NCBI GenBank assembly: GCA_040285855.1
Contig: JAUFOQ010000002.1
Location: 1,426,001 to 1,490,000 of the forward strand
Direction of reading: 5' to 3'
Length of the DNA stretch: 64,000 bases
Source: Eukaryota sp. GEM-RC1
Taxonomy: Eukaryota
A program made the position numbers and the translations under genes. How positions within the stretch are numbered: position 1 is the first letter of the stretch; each line of letters starts with the position of its first letter. A model generated the notes under the pieces. The model was not told the origin of the DNA and did not search any database. It was given only the letters and a program-made list of their open reading frames with translations. Shown piece by piece: positions 1,801 through 57,760 of the stretch.

Positions 1801-1891
1801 CAGATATTTGTTCTTCTTGTTCACTTGTTTATATTATCATATATGACTAGGACTATTACGGTACTACAACCAGGACTGGCTCTAACTAAAG

Positions 1892-9213: not shown

Positions 9214-9633
9214 TGAGAAATCTTGAGGTCTTTAGATGTCATTGGTTTTAAGGATTAACTGTAGACAGGGTGAAGATGTCGGTTAATCAAGACAAATGAA
9301 ATGATCTCAACTTCAACATCATGTTTTACGTGTTATTCTCCCCTAGCGAACCTTTACATACTTCCCTTTCAGTTCGTGTACTTGTAACAGTATACCAAAC
9401 ATAATTCTTGATTTATGTATTTTGAATTTCGGAAAACATCAGCTACACATGGACTCGGGCTAGATTAGAGTTGTTCAGAAGGACATCGACGGTTTGACAC
9501 TAACCGTGACCATCCGTTATTTCTAATAGTGTTGTCTTCATCGATCAAATTCAGAATCCAGAATCTAGAATTAACAATTGGAAAATGAACTTCCACATAC
9601 AGTGTACTGCTACTAGTAGAAGACCAAACATAC

Positions 9634-10248: not shown

Positions 10249-11380
10249 CTTTAGTTAGAGCCAGTCCTGGTTGTAGTTTAGTGATGTGTACATTTTCTTT
10301 TAGAATTGTTTTCATACCAACTGAAATTGACGATTGTTCTTTTGTTTTGCACGATTGTAGAAATTGGGATTCCTGTTAATCCTTATTAGAGCATTTTTAT
10401 GGATTCTGTTCATTTTATTGTATTTCAACTACATGCACTTGTATAGCGTCTACTAGGTACGATGTACTTACGGAAACATACATTATTACTGTAGAAAAAC
10501 CATGTGGAACTGTATTTGGATATCATCTTTGTTGGAACTTTGATGCCTGTGATTCACGTATAGCACAAATACTGCTAAAACTGATCGCTATTCAATAGAA
10601 ATACTTCTCTAACATTATTTCTACTAGATATGGGTCCTTTTGGCTATTGGGACTCTATCGACCCTTTCAATCAATTATTGTGATTGGGAAAGAGAGTCAA
10701 ACAGATCTCACAGTCGCTATTGTATCAATAGATTATATTTATAGGATAGTAGTTCTGCTGTAGCATTACTTTGTTAAATCAAATTCAATATAATAAGTAT
10801 ATGGTAGTCGATTTTTGAACAATCGACACCACAATGTTGAGACTTCGTTGTTATTTATGACCACTTAATCAGTGTAGCTGTGGAAATGTGGAAAACAATT
10901 GATCTACTCTCATTTGTTACATTACTTATCGAAGCTGGAAGCAGGTTGCTATTAGCGTCTCAAATACATAATCTATTTGTAAGTGCCACAAAGTTGCTGC
11001 CATTGGTTTCAAGGATATACTGTAGACAGGATGAAGATGTCCTTCTAAAAGGAGTCGATCTTGAAATCTTGGAAATTTCCTCGTATGACAAACAAAGTTT
11101 TGAAAAGACTTTGTACCATTGGAGACGACTCTTATATGATTTCTTTGAGTGTGATAGCACAAGATGTGGATGAAACTGAGAGTTCTGTGGAAAAAACATA
11201 TGTTCCTTAATTGAGCAAGGCATACTTATTGGAACAATAAAGAATGACCAATTACTGGTTGCCAGCTGCTGGGATACTCCAATGAGCGAAGCACAACGAA
11301 ATCTGGCCGGCATCAAAACATCAATAATTTACGATCGTTTATAGATAGATTTCGATAGTACAGAGGAGAATAAAATACAT

Positions 11381-17091: not shown

Positions 17092-20000
17092 ATGCCTCCA
17101 GATCTGTTTTTGGAGCAAATAGCCCTCGCTGATGATGTTGGGGCTTTATTGAATCAGTACGTACCTTCCTCCTATGAGTACATCTTCATCAAACTGCTAC
17201 TGCTCTCTCAATCAGATGTTGTAACAAAGGAAGAGTCGTCATTCATAGATACTTTAAACTCGAAGTTCCCCGGTCATCAGTGTGACGCTTTTCAACTGAA
17301 ACACGACATCCGTCTCCTGTTTCAAACAGAAGACATGAACATCAGAACACGTCTCATCAACAACATAGCGAGAACTCTAAATGTTGAATCTGTTCTGAGC
17401 ACAGCCCACAACGAATCAGACGAATCATACACTTCTCATCTTGATAATGATAAGCTTCAACCACAAACACTGGTCGACTCGCTCATAAGATCTGGATCCT
17501 TCTCATCTCTGTCTTCCGATTCCTTCTCTCTCATTAACCCAGACTCACTCACTGATCTCTCTCTCAATGCCACCCTTCAACTTCTCACAGCCGTTCCTTG
17601 TTTCATTGTTCACCACCACCTTCTACCTACTCTTGTTTCCTATCTCAAAAAAGCAGGAGCTAGTGCATACGACAAACTCAATCTCAGTACGAAACTATCT
17701 CAAGACCAATTACTACATCTACTCTCATCTGTCCCTTCTTGCTGTTCTCTTTCTTTTATACGTGATCTCACATATACTTTCCTTCCCCACGATCTCTTCA
17801 ATGTCTCCCTTGATGACGTGTCAGCTTACTATACCAATGCATTTAATGTGATTAAACAAATCAAAGTTAAAGATCTCTCCTCTTTTATCTACTACTTCTC
17901 CCTTCACAAACTCTCTTTTGATATTCAATTGGGTTTTATTGATTTCGAAGATCTTTCCTTCTTTTTAACACTTGAGAAATCTAAAGCTATTCTAGACGTC
18001 ATACCTCCTGAGCTTGTGCCTGAACATGTGTTTTCTCACGATGATTTGGTTTTTTGGGGACTGGTTGAATATTTTAAAAGTCATTCTGATGGAGATTTTT
18101 CAAAATTTCAGCAGTTTTTACCCGTTTCCTTGTTACAAGAAGCATTGTTAATGTCGCAACTAATTATCAAATCAGATACTGTTCAATCAACTATCGACTT
18201 AATCAATGATGATCAAGTTGTTGAGCGAGTTTATAATAGGAAAGTCTCCAATATTTTAAATCTTAACCAATTCAAATCCTTCTCCGATGCTCCGGTTTCT
18301 ATCTGTGTCTCTTTAAAAAATGTTGAAAATGCGAGTCTTAAGATTTTTGAAATTGATAGCAAACGCTTTTACCGCCAAAATACTCAATTGTTGAGTCATC
18401 AGATTAATTTGGATGGATTCGAACCCAATCACGTTATTGATTTGCCTTCAGTATCCCCTTCCGAATTTCTTTCAAAAGTGATTGACCTCCCCAATTCGAC
18501 AAAACGTGGCAGTTGGGTAGTTGATCTCATTTGTGACGATCACTGCACACGTTCCGTGATTTCTAAGGGTTATATATCAGTTTTTGAAGAAGAAACCGTG
18601 GCAGGACATCATTTTCATTTATTTGATGAATCAGGGGAGAAAATTTTAAATTTTGATGGATATTTGTTTGTTGGAGCTGCAGATGGAACTGAAATCAGTA
18701 CAACTGATGGTGAAATAGTTGTCCCCCACCTTCCTAACGATAAACGATCAAAAAGGGAAAGAATTGTCTTTTCAATCAAAAATGATGGATTCACTGTCCC
18801 TCACACCTTTACTCGAAACTGTGAGTCATATTCTCTTCGATTATCACCTTTGATTGTCCCCGAACAATTCAAAAGTGGTAAGTCCATGAACCTTCCAATC
18901 AAGTTGATTTTGTCCGGTCAGCAGATTGATTTTCCTACTGATATATTGAGAAAGTCTGTTTTCACTGTTACAATTCTTCAAACAGAGAATCGTTCAATGG
19001 TGAAATATTACGACAATATTGAAATTTCCAGTAACAACACAGTACTTCTCCCCATCGATCTACCACACTCTGTTACTTCAATCACTATTTCACTCACGAC
19101 TAAAATCAGCTCAAAAATCAGATCTGGCTTTGTTTTTGACCTTTCTGACTCTCACGTGATTGATTTCCCCCAAACTCAGTACCTTTCACAACCTTTCCTT
19201 TCCTTTAATTCCTCTTCTCCTGAATACTCTGTTATTTTACTGGGAAGGAACGGCGAGAGGTTTCCATCTACAACATTAGATTTGGAAGTAAATTGTGTAG
19301 TTACGAACAAGTCTTTGAACTTCCGGTTAATAACTGATCACGAGGGACTTGCCTGTTTGGGTCCTTTGATTGGAGTTAGTGATATCAAGCTTTCCTCTCC
19401 AACTAATGATTTTGGCTCAAAATCATTCAATTTATCCAATCAAAATCAATCCTTACTAACTAATCAGACATTTTCTATACCAACTGGATACTCTCACACG
19501 ATCCCTCTTGAACATTCGGACTTTGTCCTCGTTCATTCAGCTTTCCATTTCAAATCACGATCCAATCTATCAAATTTGATTGAACAATCGGACCGAAAAG
19601 TAACAATGAAAGAGCTTCCAGCTGGTGTCTATCAACTCCACTGTTTAGGCAAGGGTTTGATTCAGGACAAAGTGATCTCTTTCGTTATTTCTGGCAAACT
19701 CGACACCACTCACTCATTTTTGATCGATCCCTCCCGCATCATTGATTACCTTCCTTTTGGTCCATTAATAGAGTCTTCTTCTTTCGATCCAGAATCTCAT
19801 TGCTTGTCTGTTGAGCTTTCTGAACCCAGCGAATCCTTTTCTCATAGCCTTTTCCAAACAACTTTCTGTCATTCCCTTGACCTGGGGTTCTTCTGGTCTC
19901 GTAATAGCCCTCTAATTTCCTCTACTCCTTGTTTGTCACCTTCGCTGGCTCCATTGGACAAGCCACTGTCTTTGGAATCACGTTATGTGGCTCACAGGCA

Positions 20001-23000
20001 ATCACAACCCCACTCAACAGGAACTCTAGCTGATTTTCCTTCCCTTTTAGTGTTTGATAGAGATCAAGTTGATTTGGTACCACAGCCGCTTAATCAAAGA
20101 CGATCTGATCGTCATCATGCACGTGATTTGATTGAACCAAGATCTGTATCTCACTTCATTGCTACAAACATGCCCGCTCCTTCTTTTTTTACTATTTCTA
20201 TTGACAATGTACCAAGAACAAGCAGTGTTGAGGTTTGTGATTTCCTGGAAAGTGATGTCGTTATGATGAGTGACATTCAGTCTGCTGGTGACGTGATTGA
20301 GTTAGATTTGGAAGGAAACAAAACTGTTTGTGTTGTAATTGTTTTTAATGGTGTCTTGAATGTTATTACAATTGGTGAAGGACCCTCCACTATGCCAACA
20401 GTTGATTTAAGAATTTCTGATTCTGTCGTGATCCCTAATCAATCATCCCAATCACTACAACAAGGGGGGTCAGTATCTACCAAAATCAGACTCAGTTAAA
20501 ATCGAAGGTAAACAATATGCCACGTTTTCTTCCATTTCTGACCTCTTTGAGCTCCTTTCAGTTCTTTCTAAGAAGGATCTTTCTGAATTCCAGTGGTTGT
20601 GTAAGTGGGAAAGTTTAGGGATGGAGGAGAAATGCGAATTATATGAAAAATATAATTGTAATGAAATTAATCTATTTTTGAAAAATCATGATCACGACTT
20701 CTTTTCAGCAGTAATCTTTCCTTTATTACAAGATCGCTTTGAAAAATCTTTTATTGACGATTTCCTTTTAGACAACGACTTATCTCCTTATTGCAAGTTT
20801 CCGCATGAGTATTGTGATTTAAATCTTTTTGAGCGAGTCCTCTTAATTTCTTGGCTTAAAAAACAAGATCAAAATGACCTCACCCAATCACTTTTTGACA
20901 AGATTTCTGATGATGCGAAGTCTTTTACTGATTCTGCCTCTTACTCCACTTGGATAAAGCTAGCACTATCATGTCGTTCGTCATCTGACCTTCTTTCTCC
21001 ACCTTCTCCTTCCTCTTCTGAGGATGAGTCTGAGGAAGTTCCTTCAATTCTTCTTGAAGATGATGGTGAGATCCAGGAAGCTGAGCTCGATGCCATGCCT
21101 GCCTCTTTTTCCTTTGGGGCCTTCCCGTGTGCTCCACCTCCACCTCCTGAAGTCTTCTTTGGTGCTCCACCTCAACAATTTAGCGCTCCTCCTCCACCTC
21201 CTGGAGCCTGCGCTCCTTGTCCTTCAGAACTGTTGGTGAACCAAAGTGCTAAGCTCACTTTTCTTGATGAATGTATGGCTTCCGTAGAAGATACAGCAAG
21301 ATTAGGGGGTTCAGCAACTAAATCCAAATCAATGTTCAAATCCAAGAAAAAGAGCATGCCCTCCATGCCTGTGAGTAGGTCTGGGTCTCGCAGGACACCC
21401 AAACCAATACCAAAAGTTGAAATGTACGTTGAACCTGAAGATACCGCGGAGTTCGTGGAACAAAGGTATTGGGATTTAGATTCTACGCCATTTTTTAATT
21501 CTCAATGTAAGTTTTGGAGTGCCTTGGCTGAACACTTTTTGACCATGTCTACTTCTCCTTTTGTTTCTGAGTCAATTCTTTTCCTTTCACTTTCTCCATC
21601 AATTAACAGTTTATTATTGGCACTGGCATTCACCGACCTTCCTATTACGGCCAATCAATCAGCTCAATTGGTAAAGGAAAGTGATGGAATCCATTTACGA
21701 GCGAATAAGGATCTGATTGTCTTTACTTCTGGAGTTGTTGACTCTCATTCATTGGATTCGGAGGCTTTGATCGTAACCATGAACTTTACTGACCCTCATG
21801 ATGTGATCTCTACTAGTGAAGGTGACGTCTGCCAATCAATCAGTCGATCATTTGACAGTCGAAAACTCTATTGTTGTGAAGTTGCAACCTTTTCCATGAT
21901 TGATACAGATCAATCAGTTGACATCATATTCCAATTTCCAGCAGGTAGCATTCCATTCCAATCAGAAACTTCGATTGTAACCCGGTCAGTTAGACTTTCC
22001 AGATTTGGTCATTATCTGGAGCAGTTCTACTTCTATTTCCCCGTTGCTGGTACTTTCCCCTTTTCTCCTGTCAGAGTTTCTTCAAAGAAAGGTCAACTGA
22101 TTTCTTCTGAAAGTCCATTGACTTCAGGAGAATTCAACATTGTTGTTGTTGATCAGTATGTTTGTTCTTCTTGGAAGGATGTCGTGAAATCAGGATCAAT
22201 CAGTGAGGTGATTGATTATTTGAACGACAATGTTACTAGGTTGTCTGCTGATGATATCAATTTGCTACAAAGCCGGTGTTCGTCAAGCTCAGAATTTGAA
22301 ATAATCTCGGAATTTTTGCTAAATCATGGTCTTTTCAATCCTAACATTGCAAAATATTCTCTACTTCATTCTATTCCTACCACCTCTTCAGTTCTTTCCC
22401 ACTTTTTATCATCAGATACCAAAGTGATTGAGTTATTGAAACCCTGTTTTGAATTTAAAGACATTAAGATTCTTGATACTGCTTCGTTTATCCACATTGA
22501 GTATCTGAACTTTATGAGAAAACGATTTTTCAATTATCCTAAAGATTTGGTTGATGTACCCTCTTTTATAAGTGATCAATATTCTAAATTTTTAAATTAT
22601 TTCATTCGAGCCAATAGGAAACCATCTGATTATGTTGTTTTTTCATTTTACCTTTTAATTGTTGGTAAACTTCAGGATGCTCAAGCTATTTTCGAGAAAT
22701 CACAAACTCTTTCCACTCAGATCTCTGATCCTTTGTTTGATTCGATGATTGACCAACGGAACTATTTAAAGTTGTACCTTTTACTAATTAAAGGAGCAGA
22801 TACAAATGAGATTAACTCATTAGTTTCTGAAGGAAAGTTATCACATCATCCTAAGTTTAGAAGATTGTTTGAAAAAGTTGAACAAGATTTAACTTTTGTC
22901 CTTAATGATCAAGAACAATTGACTCAAGAAATCGCTCAAAATACTCATATTACTTGTAAATTTGACAAATCAGCTAAGAAATTGAAAGTCTCAACCACTA

Positions 23001-23530
23001 ATTTATCCAAGGTCATTATTAAATTCACTCGCTTTGATCCTGAAGTTTTCTTTTCTGTTAATCCTTTCATGGAAGTCGAAAATTCAGATAATTTTAAATT
23101 TCTGAAATCTCATCATACTATTATGTTTAACACCACCGACCCTCAACTTGATTTGATTGATGGACACTTCCATTTCGACGTGCCTAAAGATGATCATTTT
23201 CTAGTAAGATGTACCGGAAGTAATGATTCCCAGGCACTTAACACCTTTGCTACCATTTTCCTGAGCAATTTCAGTATCAAAATCAATCAAAAAGCTGGTC
23301 TTTTGACTGTGATTGGAAATGATGTGGTTTCGGCGTATGTAAAAGTCTTTTCAAAATACAAGAATAATGAAGTAAAGTTCTTTAAAGACGGATATACTGA
23401 TAGATCCAATCAATTCGATTATTGTTCCGTCTCAACTGGTCAATTAGAAAAAACTGTAAAGTTTGCTATTCTAGTAATTGTTCCCGATATGGGAGCTGTT
23501 ATTGAATTCGTTGATCCTCCTAGAAGGTAA
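17092..23530 (+). CDS. Giant (~2140 aa) AbpF-like protein with a C-terminal KDGYTD..FDY motif
   Basis: ORFs 17092-20499 and 20597-23530 join by +1 at the G6 run 20464-20469. INLDG, FYFYFPVAGTF, HIEY and YVKVF..VKFFKDGYTDRSNQFDY match the family of Dictyostelium AbpF and planctomycete homologs as I recall it. Confidence 0.7.
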
Positions 23531-27054: not shown

Positions 27055-29619
27055 CTACAGATTATTTTCGAAAAATTCGATTTCCATGTTATACTTCTTC
27101 TTATACCAAACATAAAATGCTTTCAGACCGGCAGTTTCGGGAGTCCGTCCTAGTTGATCCTCTAGTGAAGTATACATGGCCTTATTGGCATCTAGATAGG
27201 TCTGCATGGGTTTAAAAAATGGAAACACTTTGACAAGAAGCAAAACCAGGGGCTCAACAAAGAAATTGATAAACTGTAATTGAACTTGTAATACGGTGCT
27301 CTTATCTTCATCTCGAGAGGCAGGAACAGATATCTTGAGCTCTTTTTCTTTCTTTCCTTGAAGGAAGAGCTCATATGACACTCTGAGTGCAGCTTCTGCA
27401 GCTAGTTTGGGTGATTTTGATTGATTATCTAGATCGACTAATTTAATCAGCAACTTCATCAATACTTTTCTATAAGCCAAACTATTCGTCCTCCAAGGTT
27501 TAGTTAGATTTCGACCATATCCTTGGGCACTCTGCAGGATAGAGAAATGCTGTGCAAGATCTGTGGCCATAATGCAATGCTTGACAGTTTTCAACAAAAT
27601 CGTCTTGTTTTCCAATGTAAGAAACTCTAGTAATTTAGACTGATCCAATATAGTCAGAGTATGTCGATAATGAAGATCCTCAAGCGAAACCTCTGATATA
27701 GACTTTCTCCTAGATTTATCTACCAGAGTTGAATACAGATCTGGTCTCAGGGTTTTATCTAAACATGCATTGACTCCAGGATGATCAAGGTCGTGGCACA
27801 GACAAGATATAACGAGACCAAGACGTTCTAGAGGTGAAAGGCATGAAGCCAAGGGACGACATCGAAGTAGGAAAACCATAGATGATGTGACTCCAATGGC
27901 GTGCGATATGTTGTGGAAGGCATTTGATGGTGTGTAGTAATCAATGATTAAATCAACGAAATTCTTGATTGCATCAGAAGTGATGATCACCCGGAAATCA
28001 TCGAGGTCGTTTAAAAAGTCAACAAATCCAGTAAACAACGAACACAAATACAATGAAATCGACGTCTTGTTCTCAGAACCTTTCTTCCAATAATCAAAAT
28101 TCCAACTTAAATTAGCTTCATCCTTTTTAAACATCTTCTCCACCTTTCTACTTCCAATACAAGTCAATCTGAACACCTTAGGTCTATCTGCATCTAACCA
28201 AGAGAAGTTCTGATTAAGCCTATCGTCAGCAGATCGATGGCTAAAGGAGAAGGTGGTAGCAGGGGGACTACCAGTTGCGTAGACAGTAGAGTCACCAACG
28301 ATACCAGGAAGTGAGGTTGATCTGGCAAGAACTGGAGTATATGACGCCGAAACTGATTGGCATAGTTTTGATTGGGATGATGACGGGATCAAACGTCGTA
28401 AAGGGCTCACGTCCTCTTCGAAATCATCAGAAATATTGGAGCTCTCCGATTGAGCAGGTGAAAGTGGCTCGTAACCACCCATTGTCAACGCTGCAGCATA
28501 AGGAACATTGTTGGGGTTATCAACTGAGAGCAGGGGTGAAGTGTAACAACGAGGTACATCATTAGGATGTCCTAAACTGGAGACACTGTCTCTTCTGTCT
28601 GATTTATCCCGTAATTTAGTTGATTGATCTTCAAGAACAATTGGTTTGGTTGAGGGGAGGGAAGATTCCAGAAAGAAAGAAGATGAATCAAAGATTTCAC
28701 TTTCAAAGGAGCAGATGCTGGTATCTGAACCATCATCACTGAAATCACTTTCCTCATCCGAATCACTCAAAAATGATTGAGTGGTGGAGTCATCACTGAA
28801 CTCTTCGTCGCCGTCACTTTCTTCTTCACGAATAGCAAGAGCTTCAAACGTACCGCAAACACGTTCAAAACACCGACCTATCAGTTCCTTTATCCAAGGA
28901 CATAGAGGTGCAGAAGTGTAAGTTAGGGAAACTAAACTGCCCAGATCAAGATCTCGAAGGACGTTGAGCTGGGGGAACCAGGAAGTGATGAAGTCAGGCT
29001 GAGTGGGAGCAGCAGCAACAGTGGAACAAGAATCGAAAGAGATGAATCCGGGCTTGTGGTTGACGGAGGAAGCGGGTGAGAATTGTTCCGTGATGGCTGG
29101 AAGGGAGGAATCAGAGGGAGAATTAGAGAGGCTTTCAGGGACGACGTTTTTTGATCGAAGTGCAGGGAGAAAGTCAAAAAAGACAGACGAGAAAGCGTCA
29201 GAAGTTCGAGTGAGAAGGACTCCAACATCTGGATGGAGTTCGGAAAGAACTTCTTGAAGAGAAGAGCTAGAAAGAACGTAAGCAGTTAAGGGACTGAGCG
29301 CAATGACGTCACTTCTACAAGGAGAGTTGCTAACAAGTTCTAACTCACCAATAAAAGCACCAGGACCGATCGTGGTTACATCCACGAATTGAGAGACGAG
29401 TTCACATTTGACTTTAGCGGAACCTTGTAGGATAATATAAGCAGGACCATACTCACCAGTACGGATAAGGATGTCATCAGTCTGAAAGTGACGGATAGGT
29501 AGGTTTAAAGAATGGAAAGACCAAGAAGAGAGATTTCGCTAAGATGAAAAAAGATGTGTACGGCATACAGGTTTCCAAACTTCTGGTGGAATCGAGGACA
29601 GCGATGTAGAGGTTGACAT
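27055..29619 (-). CDS. Class I cyclic nucleotide phosphodiesterase with an N-terminal cNMP-binding domain
   Basis: GAFIGELEL..PCRSDVIA (cNMP); FHNISHA, HDLDHPG, ATDLAQH, KLVDL, ELFLQG, QFINFFVEP (PDEase I). The 5' end assumes a 30-nt intron at 29539-29568 and is uncertain. Confidence 0.88.
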
Positions 29620-29953: not shown

Positions 29954-30912
29954 GAGGGATGCGAAAAAATATATTGTTATTTTATTTATTGCAATAAATA
30001 TTCACAATAAATTTATTGTTGGTCAAAACAATAACAATATATTTATTGTGAGTCCCAGCAATAAACAATAATATTGCAATAATATTGTTTATTGTGACAA
30101 TAATTTTCATCACTAAAATCATCCATCTGTTTGATGTTACATGCAATTTTGCTTCCATTTGGGAGTAAGAAGATGTGTTGTGGGAGAAGTAGTCCTCTGA
30201 AGAGCTTTCACTTCAGGAAAAACAACCTAGACAAAAGAGTATACTATTTGTTTAAGTCAAATTGTTGACTGTTTGGCTTTTAAACTGCCGTAGTTCAACA
30301 AAGTCTAAATGGCAATCAAGAACTGATGACCGTAAGAGTGAGAAACATTCAGAAGAACTTTTTGCGTGGGACATACCAAGCAAGTCGAACGACTATTTAG
30401 TCGTGCTAACGTGACTACTGAAACCCTTCGCAAAAGACTATATACATCAAGTCTGGAAAAACAACTTTTTTTTTGAAAAAAAACGGATTTATGTGCGGAG
30501 AAAAACACATAATAAGAAAACAACAAATAAATGAACACTATTAAAACAAATTATCAAACGAACTACCTAATTTCGAAAAGTAGTTGCCTCCAAACAACTT
30601 GGACAAAATGGAATCAACATATCTTTTATAGATGTATAACTCTCATCTATGGTGAAGATACTGTTCGCAAAAGTCGTAATACTAACCCTTGACTTAGTTG
30701 TTGGACAACGAAGGAGGTTTTTCGGATGATAGCGAATAGACCACAAAAAAATGAGTCATCGGATTGCGTAGAAATATTGCCAATATATTTATTTATTTAT
30801 TTGTAAACTTGACAATACCAATATATTTATTGTTGGCCACAACAATAACAATATATTTATTTTCGTCGTGAACAATAATTTATTTAAATAAATATATTTT
30901 TTCGCATCCCTG
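29954..30912. mobile_element. hAT-type non-autonomous element
   Basis: TIR (G/C)AGGGATGCGAAAAAATATATT; perfect 8-bp TSD GTGCTATA; CAATA/TATTG subterminal repeats. Confidence 0.92.
30476..30624 (-). mobile_element. 3' fragment of a CRE-like retroposon nested in the hAT element
   Basis: Reverse complement of about 44062-44207. Confidence 0.85.
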
Positions 30913-31029: not shown

Positions 31030-32908
31030 TTATCACGACTCTCCTGCGAGTTGATTGCGCAAAATACTTGTGCAATTTGCAATTGGGGTCCCTGATGGCA
31101 CATCTTCACCTTTGGAGTTCATTTTTGATGGGCATACTATTCCTTTTCCATTTACAGTGTCGACGCTATTAAGTTTTTGGGTACTTTCATTGGTAATGGC
31201 GCTCAAATACACCTGAAGTTATTGGGAAAAATTTCTGTAAAGCTTAAACAGATTCTTCAGCTGAAAATTGGTAAGCATTTTTCTTTTTCTCTTTTGACGA
31301 CGTGTTTTGCGTCCAAAATCAATCACTTTTGCGCTCAATCAATCCTGTACTGACTCTTGATTTACCGACAAAGTATAATTCTTTGTGAACTAAGTTATTA
31401 AGCAAGGAGTTTTTATATTTATTTGAAAATTTGTGTTCAGAATTTGGCAGGAAGTCTAACAGATCGTACTGGAAGAGTACATTTGCTTTTTCGATTTTTA
31501 GGTCTTTCTATAGATATGTTGATTACATTTTGTCCAAGTTGTTTGGAGGCAACTACTTTTCGAAATTAGGTAGTTCGTTTGATAATTTGTTTTACTAGTG
31601 TTTATTTATTTGTTGTTTTCTTGTTGTGTGTTTTTCTCCGCACATAAATCCGCTTTTTTTGTTCTTAAGTGATCTTGTAGAGGTTAATGACCCGAAATTG
31701 CCTTATCGCGCTTATTCATCGGCTAATTTTGGCGGTGTAGGGTTTTTGGAGCTTCATACTTAAATACAAGTGCGTTAATTGGTGGAATGAAGAATTTTCT
31801 ATTTGAATTTAAATCCAGATACGGTTTTTTGTTTAATGAAAATCTCATTCATCATACTCCTTGGCTAAGTTCGTTAGTCTCAGTTATTGACAATTTGGAT
31901 TTGGATATTTGGAACAGCTGTTTTCCTTCTCATTTACCCAGTATTCCTGAAAAATCTCCATTGTCTCTCCCTTTATGTGTGGTCAAACTTCAAAATAAGC
32001 ATTTGAAGGCATTTGAAAACCTGGATTTTGAAAATCGTTTTAGTGTTACTAAAATTAATAATCCCGTTTTTACTGATTTCTTAAATGATATTACGAATTC
32101 AACTTGTTTGATCACTCAACAACCACGTCCTTTTGGTTTGCATGTGTCTGATGAGACTTGGAAATTAAATACGCGATTGCGTTTAGGTTTGTTTCCTGCA
32201 GAATTGCTGGACAATTCTGAATGTGTTTGTAGTCATCGTCGCATTGCAACTTTTAGAATGTAATTAATTGCCCCAAATTTATTCAATTTCGCTCAGTTCT
32301 TCATAATGCTGTCAGAGATGTTACATTTGAAATGTTTAAAGCTCTTGGATTTCATGCCAAAGTTGAACCTTTATTGATTGAGTTGGGTCTTGATGTAATG
32401 AATAATTCTCGTCGAGGTGTCTTACATGGTCCTTTTGTTGATTCTAGTCAAATTATCCTTGATGTTACAACAGAAAATCCATGTGCTCAAACTTATGTTG
32501 ATGGCTTAAATTCAAAAGGATTCAATCACCTAGAAACAGTTGAAAAACGTAAAATTGATTTGTATTCCAAAGATGTTGCTAAACTCAATCAAAATTTATA
32601 TTCAAAATTTGTGTTTGTTCTATTTGATATTTCTATTTATGGTAGTACAGTATTAGTGAAATGGCTTCTAAGTTTTAACTGATTTTGGATTTATGTGTAA
32701 GTCTCAGAATAAGAGATTTAACTTATCAATTTGGCATAACCGTTTGATTTTTTCTTTGTTCCGCTCGGTGCCTACTAGTAAGATCTTTAAATCAATTTTC
32801 ACAAAGTTGTACAAAAACTGTGGTACTGTTGACCAGGACTTTTCGGTGTCTAGTGTTTCATCGCTTTATTTTGATAAGTATTGTACCCACCATCAATAAA
32901 CTGTTTTT
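31030..32908 (+). mobile_element. Decayed CRE-like RLE retroposon (RT C-terminal part, zinc knuckle, endonuclease)
   Basis: IKFLGTFIG, FGGVG, RLRLG, CVCS..INC, HNAVRD, VEPLL and IILDVTT motifs. Left boundary approximate. Confidence 0.85.
31403..31660 (+). mobile_element. CRE-like 3' fragment nested in another CRE copy
   Basis: Matches 43954-44207; flanked by GTTATTAAG / GTTCTTAAG (9-bp TSD, one mismatch); ends in a T-run. Confidence 0.85.
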
Positions 32909-34574: not shown

Positions 34575-34860
34575 GTACAACATTTGGTGATACAACATTT
34601 GTAATGACAACATTTGTAATGACAACATTTGGTGATACAACATTTGGTGATACAACATTTGTAACTACAACATTTGGTGATACAACATTTGTAACTACAA
34701 CATTTGGTGATACAACATTTGTAACTACAACATTTGGTGATACAACATTTGTAACTACAACATTTGGTGATACAACATTTGTAACTACAACATTTGGTGA
34801 TACAACATTTGTAACTACAACATTTGGTGATACAACATTTGGTGATACAACATTTGTAAT
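34575..34860. repeat. 15/30-bp minisatellite (ACAACATTTGGTGAT / ACAACATTTGTAACT)
   Basis: About 19 tandem 15-mers alternating into a 30-bp higher-order unit. Confidence 0.95.
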
Positions 34861-37498: not shown

Positions 37499-39015
37499 TT
37501 AAAGTCTTTTTGATTCCAAAAGCACTTGCAGTGGTTTTAATTCTTCGTTTTCCTGTTTTTTCCCTAAAACGTCATTTTCGTCTTTTGTCTTTGACGATTT
37601 GTTTTCAAATTTTGTTGTTGAAACATCAATTACATTTTGTTCTGTCATCAAATCAGGTTGTACACTCTGAAGTAGATCATACATAACAAGACATAGATTT
37701 TTTCTTGATCTGTTAGTGTATAATTTTGTCTGATTTTGTTCCTGACGTGCATCAACCATTAATCCTTGTAAAATTAAAGTAACATTCAAACAGACAATCC
37801 ATCCACATATAAGAGACGATGTTGACTGTGCAAAAGGTATATAGTAGTCCACCTTATACTCTGGTAATCTTGCAAACAGATTTGTTTCCCCACATCCATA
37901 AACAGTTCTAAAAGGATTAACGATTAATTCAGTGGTTAATGAATAATCCAAAGAATCATAAATATTGAATAATAAAACATTTGCTTCATTTAGAAACAAT
38001 TCAATAAGAATCCAATGACCAGATCCTGCATCACCAGGAACATGTTCTTTCACCAAACATAATGGGGCAAGAATTCTTTTCCTGATTTTAGTGTATCGAC
38101 AATAGCCTTACCAGAATGTAAGGCATAGCATATTGGATCACCTACCAACTGTTGAGTTTCTTGAGATTGCAGGAACTTGTACCTACTTGATTTAAATTTT
38201 TGGAATGCAAGCATCACAATGAAATCAAGTTCAGAACTCAACAAGAGTTGTGTTTTGCCTTCTCTATCATCCTTTGTCAACATTTTTTCAATATCACAAA
38301 ATCCAAATTTTAATTTTGAATTTATGTAAAACTGATCACTGATTAAATCTACAGAAAGAATCAACGGGTTACGTTGTTTTTTGCGTTTCATAGGTTTAGA
38401 TAAATTAGCATTATCAATGACCGGAACAGGAACTATTTCAGATGGTTCAGAGAAAATAGAATGAATATGATTGATTGCGAAGTTATCAATACGACGTTTT
38501 GGTGAAGGAAAAACGACTTGAGATGGAGTATCGTCAATGCGAGTAATGTCACAATCATGTAAAAGATTAGGAGATTGAGGCTGAGGAGGAGGAGGAGAAA
38601 GAGCAATTGTAACTCGTTTAACGTCTTTGAGTAGATCCTTAAGATGATTTAGAGTTGAAGTTGTTGAAGGAAGTGGAAGAGATATGTCACGCTTCTCATA
38701 AGAACCATCAAAAGGAAAGAGATGAACAGTTTCTAGATCAGCATCTAGCACAATGGCAACGGATGATTTGTAGTTGAGGCAAAAATCCATGGTACCCTTT
38801 TTAAGATCATCTGGTAAGTCAGGTGTTGACACTTCCGTTATGTGGATGGATTTAGTTCTCCATGAATTGTATGTTCCATAAGGAAGAAGAACAAGTGACA
38901 AATTAACTGCATGCTTATCAGCAAGCTTTACAACAAGTTTCATATATGTTTTGATGGTACGGGAACGACTTTCTTGTTCAGAAGTATTTCTGAGTTTGAA
39001 GATTGAGTAGGACAT
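37499..39015 (-). CDS. Ulp1/C48-family cysteine protease (SUMO/Ubl protease-like), ~505 aa
   Basis: Joining two ORFs by -1 at an A4 run near 38078 gives RILAPLC..GHWILI..IYDSL..AQSTSSLICGWIV, i.e. His-Asp-Gln-Cys in C48 order. Confidence 0.75.
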
Positions 39016-39129
39016 GGGAAATTCTGATATAGACTTTATTACAGATTTCGTTTTTTAACACGTGAATTCACACACACATGTCCATTACAGTCTGTGTGGG
39101 ATTTCATTTTCCTTCCTCCTACAGTATAA

Positions 39130-42100
39130 ATGTCGTTTGTTCTGCATCCAAACAGATGTTGTCCGCCATCCTGTCCTTATCTGACTCAACTTGTATACAC
39201 TGGTTTAAGCACTAAAAAAAGTAAAGCCAAAATTTCAGATGTTCCATCACCACGAGGTTCACCTTTAATTCAACGAAATCAATTTAGAACTATCAGCTCC
39301 CTTGTTTCAACTGGTGACACTCCAATACGAAAGACTTACCGCCGTATGTCCACATTGGAATCATCTGAAGTACCACCATCTGAACTATCATCGCCATCTG
39401 AATTACCACCATCTGAATTACCACCAAAATCACAGGCCTCCATTATGTCGTATCCATCGCCAATTCAAGAAGAAATCCATAAAATGGAAGTAAATCTACA
39501 TACTGAGCCTATCGAACAAGAAATACAAGTTCAAGTCTTTCTTAATTCCCCTTTACTTTGGAACAATCTGCCAACTTTTTGTTTAATTCATGTTCAAAGT
39601 GATTTTGCCAAAAAGAAAGAATTAATGGCAATAATGTTCAACTTGTTCAAGATGATGATGACATTGAAACTGTTGAAGGTGAAGCTGAAGATCAATTAGA
39701 AGTTAAACGTGATTCTTCTGTTGATCCGATTGTATCAATTTCCATCCAGATCATTGATCACAATGAGTTTAATGAAAAACACTTATTTTCTTATGGCAAT
39801 TTTGAGACTACAAATTTGGATTTGTGTACTTTACATATTTCAGATAGTGAATCCAGTATGCTTAAAAACTTCATCTCCTTCATTACTCAACATTGTCCGC
39901 GATTGTTTGTGAGTTATGACTTTCACTTAGATACATTTCCCTTTCTTGTATCACGTTGTCAAGTCTTCAAAATCAATACAACGTTTACTTTTCCAGAATT
40001 TAAACCCTATATTCCCTTTTGGTTCAACAAATGGTGTAAGGAAACAACTTTTGGTCCGTTTTTTAGTCTCGATTTGAATGCTGTATTGAAGAATTTTTAT
40101 GTCTTTACTGGTGGCCGTTTTTTGGAAAATGTTGTTCAAATTTTTCTTGAAATGAATAATTTTTCTAAAAATGAAACTGTCAAACGCTTGGAAGAACTTA
40201 AGCATGACTCTGATCCTGATGAAGTTCAATTAGTCAATAATGTCCAAAACTTGCATGGCATAATTGACAGTATTAATGTTTTAGTTCCAGACAATCCCAA
40301 AGTGAAGGTCGATAAGATTAAAAAAGAAATTTGTAAGAAATTTGGAGAAAGTAAATGAACTTTGGGCCAAGGAATCGACAAAACCGCTATTGTTGAACAA
40401 CTCAATTCAACAATTAGCTCTGATTGAATACTTGTTGGCTGACCTATTGGATCCCAAAAAGCAAACCTTACGTTCAAAGTCACCAATGAAAGTGGTTAAG
40501 AAACGACTAGACAATGTTGTATCCAAAGCGAAGGTTAAATTTATTGAATCTCGTGTTAAGAGAGCTCACCAAGTAAGAGTCCGTGGTTCTCTCTTTTTGA
40601 AACATTTTTTTGTTCATAATTTTCACCATTCAGGTATTTTAGAATACATTCAGAAGTTACTGCCTGCTACTGTTCCAAATGTAACTGTTAAGGAAGAAAT
40701 GAATTCTGATACAGATGAGTCAACTGATGAAGAAACAGATGTACCTTCAGAGTCTATCGATGCTGCTACTCCTCCTATTAAATTAGAAAATATTGAAGAT
40801 GCGAGTGATGAACCTAAACCTGAACCTGACCTTTGGACTAAAATTCAAACTGCCAAAATTGAATTGCCATACTGGAAGAATTTTTTTACGTTGAAATCAA
40901 TGGAACAAGTGTTGTCTATGATGACGATTAGGGACCACAAACTTGTAAACAATCAGAATCATATTAGGACTGTACAAGAATCGTTAACAAACATAATTTC
41001 TAAACCAAATGAGGCCTCAACTCAAAAACAGTTTGCTCAACATTTCTTGATGCATTACATTCCTCGTTTAGAACTAGCTGCTCGATCTGTTGGACTTGAT
41101 AGAATTGTGTTTCCCAGTAGTTATCGTTTATCTCGTTTATTGCATTACATGGCTACTGAAATTATAACGAATTACAAGACAAACATGAGTGAACACTTTC
41201 ACGAATATGTTTTTCAAGTATTTAATTTGGTTACCCTGAAAAAGATAGACTTAACAAGCTTACTGATAAGAATCAACGACAAGAGTTGTGTACAAAGCTT
41301 AATGAAGTCAGACAGTTGATCATTAATGGGGAAATTTCAAAAATTAATTTTCAAGATGTTGAAGTGTTTCCTGATCCCAATTCTAGACTGAGTTTACTAT
41401 TTTTTAACTATTTGTTTACTTTTTTTGAAGGTAAAATGGAGAAAACAATCTATTATGCTGAAAAAGTAGATCCTTTGAAATTCTTAAGTCATGCAGTGTA
41501 TTTGAAACGTCTTGTTGAGGACTCTTGTCCTGGTGTTACTGCCAATAATCCTTTTCCTCTAACAAAATCACTGATTCCTAATCATATCAGATTGGATACT
41601 ACATGGTTTAAAGAAGTTTATGCATCAGAAATTAAAGGTAGCTTTGATGACGTTCGAAAAGATATTTGGCACTCAGTTTTGAAACCAAAGTGTCTTCCAA
41701 AGTCATTGTCTCATGACTTCAAATACAGTTCTATTTCTACAGATGGAGTTAGCTGTAGTTTAATGATGATGCGGAAAGATCTGCTTGATGGGAGAGGAAA
41801 TCCTCATAAGAAGGTGAAAGCAGTTGACTACACAGCTACTCAAAGGTACATTGATTCTTTGAGTTCCACAGAAATTCAAAACTTAAACTTGAAATCCAAA
41901 AGAATTGTTGCTATTGATCCTAATCAGCATGATTTGATGTATTGTGCTTCTTTAAAATCTGAGGAGGAAAAGAAAATCGAAGGTTTCGATACATCAGCCA
42001 ATCTCAGAAGAAGAAAGATTTCTCCAAAATCATCAAAGAAAAAAGGAAGCTTGAAAAAATTAAAAAAGGAATTGAAGGATTGGAAAGACGCACCCACTAT

Positions 42101-43367
42101 TGACAAACCATCAACTGTCAAGTTGAAAAATCGTGATGATTGGAAAGTATTCAGATACACTGCTGGGGAGCGCAAGGCAGATATGAACAAGTCTCCATGG
42201 AAAAGAAAAAAACAAGGAATGAAAGAAAAAGAGCTAAGAGAAAGAAGAGGAAGCTGGAGAAGAAAATAAGACGATATAATCTCCACCGTTTATCTGAATC
42301 CGAACGGTTACAACAATATTCTACCCAATTTATCCACAGTCCAGATGGCAGTCGCATTGACATAAATGGGCAACAAATTTTAGATCAATGGGGCTCTAAC
42401 TCACCAGGCAGTAAATCTTGTGATTTGACTCAGTATTCTGCTTTTGTACTTGGTAAAGAAATTACCTGTTCTTTATTACGATCACCCACTACTGATCAAA
42501 GAACTACTGACGGAATTTACGAAGAAAAGTGGTTTAGACGTAGACGCTTAACACAATATTCAAGAAAGGAACGAAGTGAAAAAACATGCTTCACAGATTT
42601 GCTCTCCAGTTTGGAAACCCAGATGAAGTCGTTGTTGGGTATGGAGACTGGAACGACACTGCTTTTCGTCGAAGAAGAGGTAAAGCATCGACTGTAAAAG
42701 GTGCTTCAATTCGGAAATTATTGAGAAAATTTGGATTTAAAGTGTTCCTAGTTGATGAATTTAAGACCAGCAAATGTTGCTCTGCATGTGTTTCCAGAAA
42801 CGACGAAGGTATCTGTTCCAATCCTGAAAGGATAAAAGTCACTGATCCTCATTGGAAGAAGAAGTTACAGAAGGAAGAGAAAGAATTAAAAAGGAAATTA
42901 TGGAACACAATCAATTAGACAATATTGTGGAGCGTAACTTTGATGATGAATGGACCAAACAGTTGCCATTATCAAAAGAAAGATTGAAGAACAACAAAGT
43001 CTCACCATGGGGCTTAGTTGAATGTGCTAAATGTCATGTCCTCTGGAATAGAGACTTCAACTCTGCTATCAATATTTACAATATTGTAAATGGAACCATT
43101 CAAGGTCAAGGTAGACCTGCCATCCTCGAGAGACCAAAATCTCAAACAACACCTGTCGTGGATGGCGGGAATACAGATCAGATTCCTAAGAAAAAGACTG
43201 TGAGTAAGGGTAAGGGTAAAGCGAAGCGTCCTCTAACAAAAGTCAGAGGTCCTAACAAGTGTGGTATATGTTTTCGGCCTGGGCATAACAGAGCAACTTG
43301 TCCAAATAAGCCTAAGAAAGATGTACCCAAGGACTCACACGTAAACCATAAAGATCAGGAATCTTGA
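39130..43367 (+). CDS. Fanzor1 (TnpB-family RNA-guided endonuclease); core from ~40486, possible ~450-aa N-terminal extension
   Basis: SISTDGVSCSL; RuvC-I VAIDPN (D 41916); FRYT; YEEKWFRR; FGNPDEVVVGYGDW; RuvC-II LVDEFKTSKCCSAC (E 42757); CAKC..WNRDFNSAINI (D 43053). Six single-base frameshifts needed (near 39610, 40325-40345, 41240, 42208, 42582, 42890). Confidence 0.9.
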
Positions 43368-43525
43368 ATCTATGAAGTTAGCTCGTCTTAAAAGACTTTG
43401 CGAATGAGGACATTTATTTGTCAAACTGTGAGTTTTGCTCATGAGTTTGCTTACGAGCTTGCTCATGAGATCATGAAAATGTGAAGGGTTATGTCCTTAT
43501 GCATTTGGAATGAAATTCACAGTAC
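43368..43525 (+). ncRNA. Candidate Fanzor omegaRNA (scaffold plus flanking guide)
   Basis: Nested stems directly after the Fanzor stop: 43385-43396; 43399-43413 with 43491-43503; 43438-43469. Position agrees with known Fanzor/TnpB omegaRNAs; boundaries are inferred. Confidence 0.55.
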
Positions 43526-43541
43526 AACAATCATTGCCAAT

Positions 43542-44207
43542 TATTTTCTCATTTGGTCAATTGTTCAAAGTTCATATATTGTCGTTCAATTTTGCACAAC
43601 AGTCTTCGAGATACATGTTTGGAAGTGTTTAAGGCAAATGGTTTCCATGGCAAAGTCGAACCATTACTTTCTCATCTTTCAGATCACCCTGATTCTACTC
43701 AGAAACGTGGTGATTTTATTGGCCCTTGGTTGTCATGCCAAGAAATTGTTGTTGATTTTACGACCGTTGATCCTTGCAAAGCTTCAGCTATTGCCAACAT
43801 TTTGAATCCCTCAAATGATCCGCTGAAAGACGCTGAGAACGCCAAAGTGTCTAAGTATGGACATCAAGTTGCTGCATTGAATTCACGAAGACACAATAAT
43901 ATCGTCTTTCAGCCTTTTGCAGTTTCATTGTACGGAAATTTCGGTTCTTCTACCAAGGAGTTTTTAAGTTTATTTGAAAATTTGTGTTCAGAACTTGGCA
44001 AGAAGTTTAACAGATCGTACTGGAAGAGTAAATTTGCTTTTTCGATTTTTAGGTCTATGTATAGATATGTTGATTCCATTTTGTCCAAGTTGTTTGGAGG
44101 CAACTACTTTTCGGAATTAGTTCGTTTGATAATTTGTTTTAATAGTGTTTATCTATTTGTACTTAACTTATTATGTGTTTTTCTCCGCACATAAATCCGT
44201 TTTTTTT
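43542..44207 (+). mobile_element. 5'-truncated CRE-like RLE retroposon with TSD
   Basis: HLVNC, HNSLRD, VEPLL, KRGDFIGP..VVDFTTVDP and PFAVSLYG motifs; perfect 12-bp TSD ATCATTGCCAAT (43530-43541 and 44208-44219); 3' T8 tail. Confidence 0.93.
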
Positions 44208-44217
44208 ATCATTGCCA

Positions 44218-44604
44218 ATGTCTTCTCCACACCAACCGCAACTGCTACCTCTCAGTCCTTTCAAGTCTTTCGGTGATAATCATCTGAAACCTTTGCCTCC
44301 AAAATTCCATTCTATGCAACGTTCTAGTAACTCTTCTAGTCCACGGTCTCCACTAATTTATGCGCTACATGAAGGTGACATCAAAGATATCCGCAAACCG
44401 GCTCACTCAATTGTTTCGGAGGCTCGTCAACAACTGCTAGATCGTAGCGTTTGGGTACCAAAAGCTCGATCAATACCTAAAAACTACTGTCAACGTCCAC
44501 CAACTCCTTTCCCTTTCTCTCTCTCTGCCAGATCCAAATCTGGTCCGGTTACGATCCCATCTCGTCACTTCAGCTTATCGGACCCAAAAATGTGCACTAC
44601 GTAG
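44218..44604 (+). CDS. Hypothetical Pro/Ser-rich basic protein
   Basis: 128-aa ORF from ATG 44218, convergent with the next gene. Confidence 0.5.
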   Translation: MSSPHQPQLLPLSPFKSFGDNHLKPLPPKFHSMQRSSNSSSPRSPLIYALHEGDIKDIRKPAHSIVSEARQQLLDRSVWVPKARSIPKNYCQRPPTPFPFSLSARSKSGPVTIPSRHFSLSDPKMCTT

Positions 44605-49749: not shown

Positions 49750-50745
49750 TTACTTTTTTTCTTTCACAACTTTCTCCACATTATCTGCGAAGCCTCTGCC
49801 CTCATCAGACGAATCCTCTTCTAAACACACAGTTCCATTCAAAACACTAAATCTATACACTGTTTCCTCGACCATTCTACTATGAATCCATCCTAAAACA
49901 TATTCCCCGGTACCAAAGATTCTTCTTGGGTCCCATTCACGTACGTTATTGAACTCAGTTGTTCGTGGTAATCGTCGGCAAAGAGTTGGGTAGTAGTTGA
50001 CATCACGAAGTTCAGATCCGGAAACTATTCCATTTGAATGGTAAATTGTCAGAATTTGGGAAACACCACCTAGAGCTGATTGAACGAAGGTTTTCATTGC
50101 TTTTTCGCATTTAGTGTAATTGCTGGATTTGGAATTAGTATGTGCGGTTTTAATCTCAGTAAACTTTCCATTTCCGTCGATGCAATCAGTTTCACAGGCA
50201 ATCAAAATTTTGATTGGATTCTGGTGATTGTTTCCGATAAAAAACGTTTCAACTAAATTTACAAAGGAAGCATCACGTTGTTGATTCAGCATAACTCTCT
50301 CCACTTGACGTCCTATATACATACTCCTCCGATGATTTTCATTAACAACACGAGTAGGTGAATGAATCATTCCAAAGAAGACAGTGTTATTATGCTTGAC
50401 AGCAAATGCAGAAAAGGTATCATCTGATAGATAGGACAACATTGCAATACGTGAAATAGTATTACGGTAACTAACAAAATGGTAAGAATTCCATGGTATG
50501 TTCTTTTGGTTGATGGCAGTGAGAATACAAGGTGTTTCTTCAGCTGCTGAAGGATCAGAGATACTGGAAGAAGAAGAATAACCAGAGAGAAGGTTGGTAC
50601 CTTTATTGGGTAACTTACAGACTGGAAAGGATACGTCATCAGTATTAATAGTACCATCCAGCTTTTGATAGGAGCATATGATACGGGGAGTTCCTAAAGA
50701 CCCAGCTAAATGGGAGGTGCAAGGTTTGGGTAGAGAGAGGTTCAT
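49750..50745 (-). CDS. DXO: DXO/Rai1 family decapping exoribonuclease
   Basis: FVSYRN, GRQVE, ACETDC, FTEIKT and FVQSALGGV motifs in family order. Confidence 0.8.
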   Translation of the reverse strand: MNLSLPKPCTSHLAGSLGTPRIICSYQKLDGTINTDDVSFPVCKLPNKGTNLLSGYSSSSSISDPSAAEETPCILTAINQKNIPWNSYHFVSYRNTISRIAMLSYLSDDTFSAFAVKHNNTVFFGMIHSPTRVVNENHRRSMYIGRQVERVMLNQQRDASFVNLVETFFIGNNHQNPIKILIACETDCIDGNGKFTEIKTAHTNSKSSNYTKCEKAMKTFVQSALGGVSQILTIYHSNGIVSGSELRDVNYYPTLCRRLPRTTEFNNVREWDPRRIFGTGEYVLGWIHSRMVEETVYRFSVLNGTVCLEEDSSDEGRGFADNVEKVVKEKK

Positions 50746-50847
50746 CAATTCAATTTGGTCTGGTCAGGGCAAAAACGGTTATACCTTTATAACTTATACG
50801 ATTAAGAAAAAGTTGACCATTTTGTCACACGTATAGATCTAGCCGAT

Positions 50848-56267: not shown

Positions 56268-57760
56268 ATGTCTTCAGTGACAAGGAAACGTCGAGTTTCT
56301 ACCAACAATTCTGCTGTTACAGCACCCCGGAAGCAGTCCCGTAACTTTCCTTCGTTAAAGTCTTCCAATGACACATCATCTCCTCAACTTGATGGTCCTG
56401 CTTTGATATTGAAAACCCAACAGTCCCAGAACGTCTCTCATTCTATTCTCGATAACTATGGTCAAAAGAATCCTCAGGAGCCGAGCTCTCATCTATTCTA
56501 AAGAAAGGCAAAGTCACCCTTCCAAAACCTAAGAGGGCTCTAGAGGAACCAACCAACATAACAAATGACTCCTATGTTTCTTGTTCGGAATCTGAAGATC
56601 CCATATGTGATGAAGATGGATACTTCATCGTCCGCCCGGGAGAGTTTCTCACTGATCGGTACAAGGTACAGAAGAAGCTGGGGGAAGGAACCTTTGGTAC
56701 TGTTGTTCAATGTTATGACTTCAAGAGGAAGACAACTGTCGCCATTAAGGTAGTAAGAAACGTTGAAAAGTACAGATATGCCGCTTTGGTGGAGAAAAAC
56801 CTGCTACGAGTCCTCTTCCAACGCAAGGCTTACAAGTACCACGCCATTACTTTGCTGGGATACTTCCAGTTTAATGGCCATATCTGTCTCTCTTTTGAAA
56901 AGGGTGGACCCTCGCTACTAGACATTCTACGCTCTTTCTCTCCAGATCCGGCTAAACCTCGAGGATTCAGTAAGCTATTGTTTGAAATGGTGGCGTATCA
57001 AATGTTTAGAGGTATATGCTTCCTTCATCAACAAGGCCTGATCCACACTGATTTAAAACCTGAGAACGTGCTGTTCGCCCATGAACCTGTTGATAGAAAA
57101 GAGCTCGATGTCCTCGCAAACCTGCCTAATGCCTCAATCAAAATTATTGACTTTGGATCTGCTATCTACAATGATGACCACCACCCAGCTGTTATTACAA
57201 CAAGACAATACAGAGCCCCTGAAGTTCTACTTGATCTAGGCTACTCCTTTCCTGCTGACGTTTGGTCCTTAGGATGTATTTTATTTGAGTTATATGTGGG
57301 ACGAATTCTATTCAGTACTCACAAAACTTGGGAGCATTTGCATTTAATTGAAGCTGTTACCCGAAAGAAGTTCCCAGTGGCAATGACTCGAGAGTTGTTA
57401 AAGAAGTATACTGTTGATTCAGCCAGGTGTTACTTCAATTCTGGTACGTGCCGGCTGGCAGAAATCACTGATAGAAGAGCTCAAAGGAAGGTTGGAAAAA
57501 CGGCAAGTCCAAGAAGTAGGGATATGATTGGTGATGATGCTGAGTTGGCCAAGACTGCTGAGAGGGTTCTCAAGTATAAGACAATTGAATCGCCATTGCA
57601 GTTGATTGATGACCCTAATGCACGTGATCTGATTTCAAAGTGTTTGATTATTGATCCTGATAGTAGAATCACTGCCATGGAAGCTTTGGAGCATGAGTAT
57701 TTTAAGGATGTTATGAAAGCTCCTTGGAGGACAAAACAAGCAGTAAGGGGAGGAAAATGA
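56268..57760 (+). CDS. CLK: CLK/LAMMER dual-specificity kinase
   Basis: DEDGYF, LGEGTFG, AIKVVR, IHTDLKPEN, IIDFGSA, TTRQYRAPEV and EHLHLIE (EHLAMME-like). A -1 shift at the A4 run near 56465 joins the N-terminus. Confidence 0.88.

Follow-up and report, generated by a model that had tools for sequence, protein, structure and literature searches.

This analysis concerns a 64,000-nucleotide stretch of Eukaryota sp. GEM-RC1 (contig JAUFOQ010000002.1, positions 1,426,001 to 1,490,000; hereafter the window, numbered from its first letter), in which seven open reading frames (ORFs) on the plus strand, at 39130-39699, 39603-40358, 40306-41319, 41226-42269, 42140-42697, 42580-42918 and 42846-43367, each overlap the next and together span 39130..43367. 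The locus raises the question whether these ORFs belong to one gene and, if so, what that gene encodes. An earlier note, made from the letters alone, had read them as a very large Fanzor1 RNA-guided nuclease. We find that they encode a real Fanzor1 protein with a new architecture: it is very large, is fused to an exonuclease domain and, in full-length copies, carries a 2A motif and a protease. Taken as a whole, we consider it fairly probable that the locus is one gene of a mobile element, encoding a predicted RNA-guided Fanzor1 behind a predictedly dead exonuclease domain, and that the shifts between the ORFs are long-read errors.

Homology searches and cluster look-ups led to a set of gene models from Eukaryota sp. 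GEM-RC1, together with one model from Eukaryota sp. TZLM1-RC and two ordinary Fanzors (P0002/P0003). GEM-RC is named as Skoliomonas, a free-living metamonad (PMC11316075), and the host is likely a free-living anaerobic protist of the skoliomonads. The family is multi-copy, with clusters of 18, 8 and 26 members; sequences were listed for 15 of the 18 and 15 of the 26 members of the two largest, and six proteins identical to stretches of the window were excluded from every count. Subfamily A comprises 61 proteins with a mean identity of 95% to the window copy, subfamilies B and C are ~52% and ~40% identical to A, and a search among representatives yielded P0098, an unbroken and complete distant relative of 1,473 amino acids. 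A quick 59-row tree sets subfamilies A to C, P0098 and five fragments apart from 47 ordinary-length Fanzors by a long branch with a support of 100 in the Shimodaira-Hasegawa-like approximate likelihood ratio test (SH-aLRT); the tree used rows trimmed to unequal lengths and the first 45 matches of 580-900 amino acids, and it contains several long branches. No related locus was found in the metagenome and viral contigs searched, genome contigs lying outside that search. One subfamily A model, P0035, skips from just past RuvC-I to the last cysteine pair and is either an internally deleted copy or a gene model with an intron.

The window fragments alone gave sub-threshold matches to the TNB profile (E 7.6e-4 and 1.9e-3), and in the Atlas P0070 scored no better than 0.77 against DUF8286/TNB clusters, a low value that we treat as a lead only. 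The 95%-identical paralog P0092 matches SpuFz1 at E 1.7e-15, too strongly for chance, and PpFz1 at E 2.3e-10. Fold comparisons were made with models of P0092 and of the relative P0098 in place of the window copy. The P0092 model, with a mean predicted local distance difference test score (pLDDT) of 76.7, reached Z-scores of 15.7-16.9 to PpFz1 and SpuFz1, against 9.8 to TnpB and 8.8 to Fanzor2. For the P0098 model (residues 260-1445, pLDDT 70), the top seven Foldseek rows were Fz1 chains (E 2.5e-21 to 3.4e-16), with Fz2 at E 0.017. Sequence and fold thus place the protein in Fanzor1, nearer to Fz1 than to Fz2 or TnpB. The identity claimed in the earlier note is thereby supported, and the superposition on SpuFz1 that it had proposed gave Z 16.5 for the P0092 model.

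The Fanzor1 core (WED/REC, RuvC and zinc-finger TNB domains) occupies 40486..43135, ~880 residues with inserts, as judged from alignment, the SpuFz1 match and the fold, and it aligns from its first residues with P0002/P0003. The WED hallmark motif, a Fanzor1 feature (PMC10711439), is read at 41739-41747, its acid and glycine both being kept in 38 of 40 paralog matches. The RuvC Asp-Glu-Asp triad is intact, as the note had held. The RuvC-I Asp (41916..41918) aligns with the SpuFz1 RuvC-I motif and is kept in 41/41 paralog motif matches. The RuvC-II Glu (42757..42759) is kept in 18/18 and lies six residues ahead of the zinc finger, whose first Cys is at 42778, which is the place described for the catalytic Glu of Fanzors (PMC13565253). 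The RuvC-III Asp (43053..43055) is kept in 13/13 subfamily A matches, two subfamily C models breaking before it. All elements of the C-terminal motif of Bao and Jurka (Asp, Thr/Ser pair, C4 finger, Arg-Asp) are present and in order. The first spacer, at 283 residues, is 8 above the 125-275 of the 2013 set, a range we take as descriptive and not defining, and exceeds it because of inserts; in PpFz1 it is 272.

The size and inserts of the protein also agree with what the note had described. The gene has 1,413 codons, against a median of 656 amino acids among 85 Fanzor matches of at least 550 amino acids, and most Fanzor1 proteins are 600-700 amino acids long (PMC11423790). The Asp-to-Glu spacing of 281 residues compares with 158-211 in 55 of 56 measurable ordinary Fanzors (the outlier has 335), and the inserts after RuvC-I are indeed rich in basic residues (33% and 52% Lys+Arg). 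The C4 zinc finger (42778..43034, cysteine pairs at 42778-42789 and 43023-43034) holds an insert of 78 residues, which in the P0092 model forms two helices (474-495 and 503-520, pLDDT 91-96); the median length of this insert is 33 residues across the 45 Fanzors in which it could be measured. A candidate CCHC zinc knuckle follows in the basic C-terminal tail (43260..43301; PF13696 E 0.01, below cut-off); its Cys/His pattern was also seen by eye in P0099 and P0110 and is absent from P0098.

The seven ORFs are separated by six one-base shifts, with one base short at five junctions and one base extra at junction 2. The order of the motifs along the ORFs and the placement of every shift at an A-run, both reported in the note, are borne out by the ORF list and the sequence (runs at 39610, 40320, 41239, 42201/42206, 42579 and 42888). 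With the shifts allowed for, the coordinates add up to 1,413 codons when counted from 39130 and to 961 when counted from the ATG at 40486, and no in-frame stop caused by a base change occurs across the 1,413 codons. Read-through was scored on paralogs, which stand in for the window copy: they are in frame in 11 of 12 cases at junction 1, 11/12 at junction 2, 10/11 at junction 6 and in all five models that span junction 5. The note had left open whether the protein has ~1410 or ~960 amino acids. Because sister copies of ~95% identity read through each junction, junctions 1 and 2 included, the evidence favors the long form, of which the 961-codon version is only a part. Every junction is crossed in frame by at least two close paralogs, and overlapping models tile the whole protein; P0070, a subfamily C protein of 1,182 amino acids, runs in one frame from exonuclease to zinc finger. 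Together with the unbroken P0098, these comparisons make it likely that the seven fragments are one gene of a multi-copy mobile element. Several counts pull the other way. Junction 3 is in frame in 5 of 12 paralogs and junction 4 cleanly so in just 2 of 21 subfamily A copies (the raw script score was 4/23, of which two rows were subfamily B and two were, by eye, rescued by a compensating upstream shift). The junction 5 count is biased, since 8 models begin right after that site and point to more breaks there, and every subfamily A model fetched covers just part of the gene. We rejected introns as the cause of the junctions because the paralogs stay colinear to within one base.

What, then, fills the extra length ahead of the Fanzor core? 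The earlier note overlooked that an exonuclease domain is the cause. Fragment 2 of the window matches PF03104, the 3'-5' exonuclease domain of family-B DNA polymerases, at E 8.3e-08 (32.4 bits against a cut-off of 23), and we place the domain at 39571..40450 (ends approximate). The same profile scores above cut-off in subfamilies A, B, C and in P0098, so that the fusion of exonuclease and Fanzor is present in four diverged lineages, between which the domain is 30-47% identical; a profile of this domain matched none of the other 149 proteins scanned, many of them fragments. For the P0098 domain the best solved match is Pol delta (E 4e-4), and the Atlas score to PF03104 clusters is 0.94. The catalytic acids of the motifs that we take to be ExoI and ExoII are replaced in A, B and C, and ExoIII is not confidently alignable in the window subfamily, where the domain is classed as exonuclease-like and predicted to be catalytically dead; in a motif alignment, P0098 keeps the acids of all three. 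A weakness of this assignment is that the exonuclease part of the P0098 model mostly has pLDDT <50, so that the model does not confirm its fold and packing; in the Foldseek search with this model, where the domain was part of a larger chain, no polymerase was among the rows listed.

Upstream of the exonuclease domain lies a Ser/Pro-rich linker with a short tandem repeat (39199..39570, repeat at 39362-39426; 84-98% identical in paralogs). All 12 subfamily A paralogs that cover the start of the linker have protease sequence before it, and 11 of these 12 also have a canonical 2A/StopGo motif. In the three sister copies scanned (P0012, P0015 and P0022), the Ulp1-type protease profile PF02902 scores above cut-off in each, and a His-Asp-Cys triad appears intact by eye. 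P0098 has the 2A motif, at residue 111 (residue 73 in P0015), and no protease, which is also missing from the longest B and C models. The window copy has neither the PF02902 protease nor a canonical 2A motif: its leader remnant (39130..39198) shares its first residues with P0012 and P0013 and then joins the linker directly at ~39196-39198, after 23 residues instead of 459 and 393. Judged from these sister copies, the window copy is therefore an internally deleted member that has lost ~370 codons (~1.1 kb), including both the Ulp1-type protease and the 2A motif. By arithmetic on P0015, a full-length subfamily A protein has ~1,720 amino acids, and ~1,650 after the predicted skipping.

Downstream of the stop codon, 163 nucleotides fold at z -3.4, a value reached by 0 of 80 background windows, and within them 43425..43523 is predicted to form a three-stem RNA (z -5.6; 0 of 200 shuffles as good), which is a candidate omegaRNA scaffold with the next ~15 nucleotides as the would-be guide. 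Fanzor1 RNAs have been described as three-stem (PMC10711439). Some points weaken this candidate: the segment was picked after a scan of 16 windows, its minus strand also folds, at z -4.2, and one of its stems is a tandem repeat. The Rfam search on this region gave a chance match only. A further stable RNA fold lies inside the ORF at 43060-43200 (plus strand, z -3.8), where ordinary Fanzor ORFs end, and could be a relic or a second part of the guide RNA. The left gap of the element folds at z -1.15.

The copies of the gene are many and dispersed; we found no significant direct or inverted terminal repeats between the Fanzor flanks and no transposase in the gene. An 8-nucleotide direct repeat (39065-39072 / 43515-43522), whose right copy falls where the predicted RNA ends, is not claimed as a target-site duplication because 124 of 200 shuffles score as well. 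The right flank is bounded by a separate later insertion (43542..44207, plus strand), a 5'-truncated non-LTR-like repeat with a T-tail between 12-bp target-site duplications (43530-43541 and 44208-44219; 0 of 100 shuffles). This repeat, which has no Pfam match, is probably, to go by its motifs, one of the non-LTR retroelements with a restriction-like endonuclease. It sits in the would-be Fanzor guide stretch, just before an ATG at 44217, and shorter related copies occur at 31403-31660 and 30476-30624.

How might such an element work? RNA-guided DNA cutting is inferred here from family membership. The right-end RNA (43425-43523 plus ~15 flanking bases) would load into the Fanzor1 protein, the loaded protein would cut the empty insertion site, and repair from an occupied copy would restore the element, by analogy with the Fanzor1 proteins studied so far and with TnpB, whose homing role has been shown in bacteria (10.1101/2023.03.14.532601). 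In full-length copies, the ribosome may skip at the 2A motif and so free a protein of ~1,650 amino acids, made of protease, linker, exonuclease and Fanzor, from the leader. The Ulp1-type protease would most plausibly strip SUMO from chromatin or repair proteins of the host. With its acids intact, as in P0098, the exonuclease head would trim 3' ends at the cut; without them, as in subfamilies A, B and C, it would do no more than hold DNA ends. An engineered fusion of T5 exonuclease lowered editing by SpuFz1 (PMC13434818), which speaks against any automatic benefit from a nuclease head. We offer only as a tentative idea that the family is a natural RNA-guided cut-and-trim machine, in which a captured proofreading exonuclease, active in the P0098 lineage and released at a 2A site with a SUMO protease, steers host repair to copy the element.

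Short reads polish repeats poorly, and the six shifts probably stem from homopolymer errors in long reads that escaped polishing in a repeat. For the named paralogs, the assembly was made from Nanopore R9.4 reads with short-read polishing and is 48% repetitive (PMC11316075). Among the subfamily A models 48 of 61 end early. An out-of-frame tail follows the break in 42 of them, and in 35 of these the break is no more than 9 nucleotides from a run of at least five (background 11%; 14 of 20 when counted by distinct site). Despite ~5% divergence between copies, in-frame ends at a distance from such runs are limited to 2 of the 48. This clustering of breaks at homopolymers, with nonsense changes nearly absent, favors sequencing error. 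It has to be held against this that genuine slippage mutations also fall in homopolymers and leave the same signature; the control, 102 runs of at least five in 11 other, open ORFs, is weak because these ORFs were chosen for being open. The shifts could then be real, and the window copy and most others dead Fanzor pseudogenes of a once-complete fusion, which we think unlikely. In favor of decay, each fetched subfamily A model is broken somewhere, few copies are clean at junction 4 (2/21), the window copy is also internally deleted and the region is rich in debris of mobile elements. Yet decay fits poorly with 1,413 codons free of base-change stops, with a triad intact in all paralog motif matches and with breaks that fall at homopolymers in nearly every case and hardly ever come from nonsense changes. 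Moreover, P0051, in which the A-run of junction 3 is apparently interrupted, is in frame there.

A programmed -1 ribosomal frameshift at junction 4, perhaps also at junction 3, could ration the nuclease; we consider this quite improbable. The shifted form has a slippery run of seven A (42206-42212) just past RuvC-I, and it recurs, 15 of 21 subfamily A copies being plainly shifted with the longer A-run unchanged, but no stimulatory structure was found downstream of junction 4 (z 0.07), the frame is kept there in P0092, P0093, P0098 and subfamily C, and several other junctions are often shifted as well. To our knowledge, it would be very unusual for a gene to depend on three or more programmed shifts. 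It would be highly improbable, too, that the Fanzor is mainly an RNA-guided carrier of a SUMO protease and a dead exonuclease, used against silencing or to steer repair, with cutting secondary: the protease triad looks intact by eye in sister copies that pass the Pfam cut-off and the dead exonuclease is retained in three subfamilies, whereas all three RuvC acids are conserved, as expected of a cutter, and the protease is absent from P0098, the window copy and the longest B and C models. Finally, the Fanzor might start at ATG 40486 (961 amino acids), the upstream fragments being a separate gene. Junction 2 alone shifts in the other direction, the Fanzor core begins at that Met and five gene models start there; against this, 11 of 12 paralogs are in frame over junction 2 and the fusion is continuous in subfamilies B, C and P0098 as well. 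The separate-gene reading is thus largely refuted and retains next to no probability, while an internal start alongside the long form is possible. We therefore keep to a single long gene, interrupted probably by sequencing error.

The surroundings of the gene contain further repeats and fragments. A divergent minus-strand ORF in two pieces with one frameshift (39015-37499; 38050-39015 and 37499-38107) begins just 115 nucleotides from the Fanzor gene. By eye its His, Asp and Cys motifs are Ulp1-like; it has no Pfam or solved-structure match and no real similarity to the protease of sister copies (best E 1.2). Farther left are the C-terminal half of a PIF1 helicase without the N-terminal motifs (36796-34892, minus strand; E 2.3e-15 to solved PIF1), followed by a 15/30-nucleotide tandem array (34576-34856) that resembles a 14-nucleotide array at 953-1170. 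A large, near-perfect inverted duplication (1863-4399 and 7737-10277, 1,675 nucleotides at 100%) carries two copies of a gene with leucine-rich and acidic repeats, a dispersed repeat family is ~89% identical between 5559-5975 and 32350-32772, and two long adjacent plus-strand ORFs at 17092-23530 (1,135 and 977 amino acids) have no convincing Pfam match. Host genes for a cyclic-nucleotide phosphodiesterase with a cyclic nucleotide monophosphate (cNMP)-binding domain (27055-29385), an RAI1/DXO nuclease (49750-50748) and a protein kinase (56786-57760) show that the window is eukaryotic.

This lineage more than doubles the usual size of Fanzor1 by means of an exonuclease domain, a 2A motif and a SUMO-type protease. 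Among the matches listed, the architecture is undescribed in the literature searched, which excludes subscription journals and Repbase; two supplement files of PMC10530073 contain none of the exonuclease, protease or organism terms looked for, its domain figure S1B lying outside this scope. If our reading is true, no exonuclease-Fanzor fusion from nature and no metamonad Fanzor has been described before this one, within the literature searched. For the role of Fanzors in their native hosts, a natural fusion to a domain that trims or holds ends gives a direct handle on the events after the cut, with P0098 (acids intact) and subfamilies A-C (acids lost) as a ready-made comparison. An evolved fusion is also a useful reference for design, hand-made exonuclease fusions having done poorly (PMC13434818). 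The large size limits use as a compact editor, and repeats in long-read assemblies hide such genes from annotation.

Among known systems, the Fanzor1 genes borne by Helitron2 (CRe-1/2/3; PMC3627910) are likewise found in an element without its own transposase; unlike there, the window element shows neither a Rep domain nor significant terminal repeats, and nothing ties the PIF1 fragment, 2.3 kb left of the Fanzor gene, to it. The 2A-like sequences of non-LTR retrotransposons (L1Tc, Ingi, CR1; PMC3708506) are also canonical StopGo motifs near the N-terminus of a long ORF, at ~40-80 amino acids, but in the family described here we found neither a reverse transcriptase nor an APE domain, and the downstream product is protease-exonuclease-Fanzor. 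With the exonucleases of family-B polymerases (PF03104; Pol delta 3iay, archaeal PolB 3a2f) the family shares the profile and, in P0098, the acids, which are lost in A, B and C; in place of a polymerase domain, a Fanzor follows.

The closest relatives are Fanzor1 proteins. PpFz1 of Parasitella parasitica (9cf0/9cf1; PMC11423790) is the second sequence match (E 2.3e-10) and the top fold match (Z 16.9), and it also carries a RuvC insertion of ~100 residues. This insertion is a cyclophilin-binding FRI domain, whereas the inserts of the giant Fanzor are basic and helical and have no sequence match to FRI; the excerpts of PMC11423790 describe no exonuclease or protease in PpFz1. SpuFz1 of Spizellomyces punctatus (8gkh; PMC10432273) is the best sequence match (E 1.7e-15). 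In fold, it superimposes on the P0092 model with Z 16.5 (root-mean-square deviation 5.0, 371 residues aligned) and on the P0098 model with a TM-score of 0.75 by target length, and it shares the RuvC-I Asp-x-Asn, the relocated Glu and the third Asp. SpuFz1 is a single-module protein of 633 amino acids in an element with inverted repeats (PMC3627910), none of which were found at the window element. In contrast, the window copy has 1,413 codons, with an exonuclease head, larger inserts and a zinc knuckle, and the full-length sister copies, at ~1,720, add the protease and the 2A motif.

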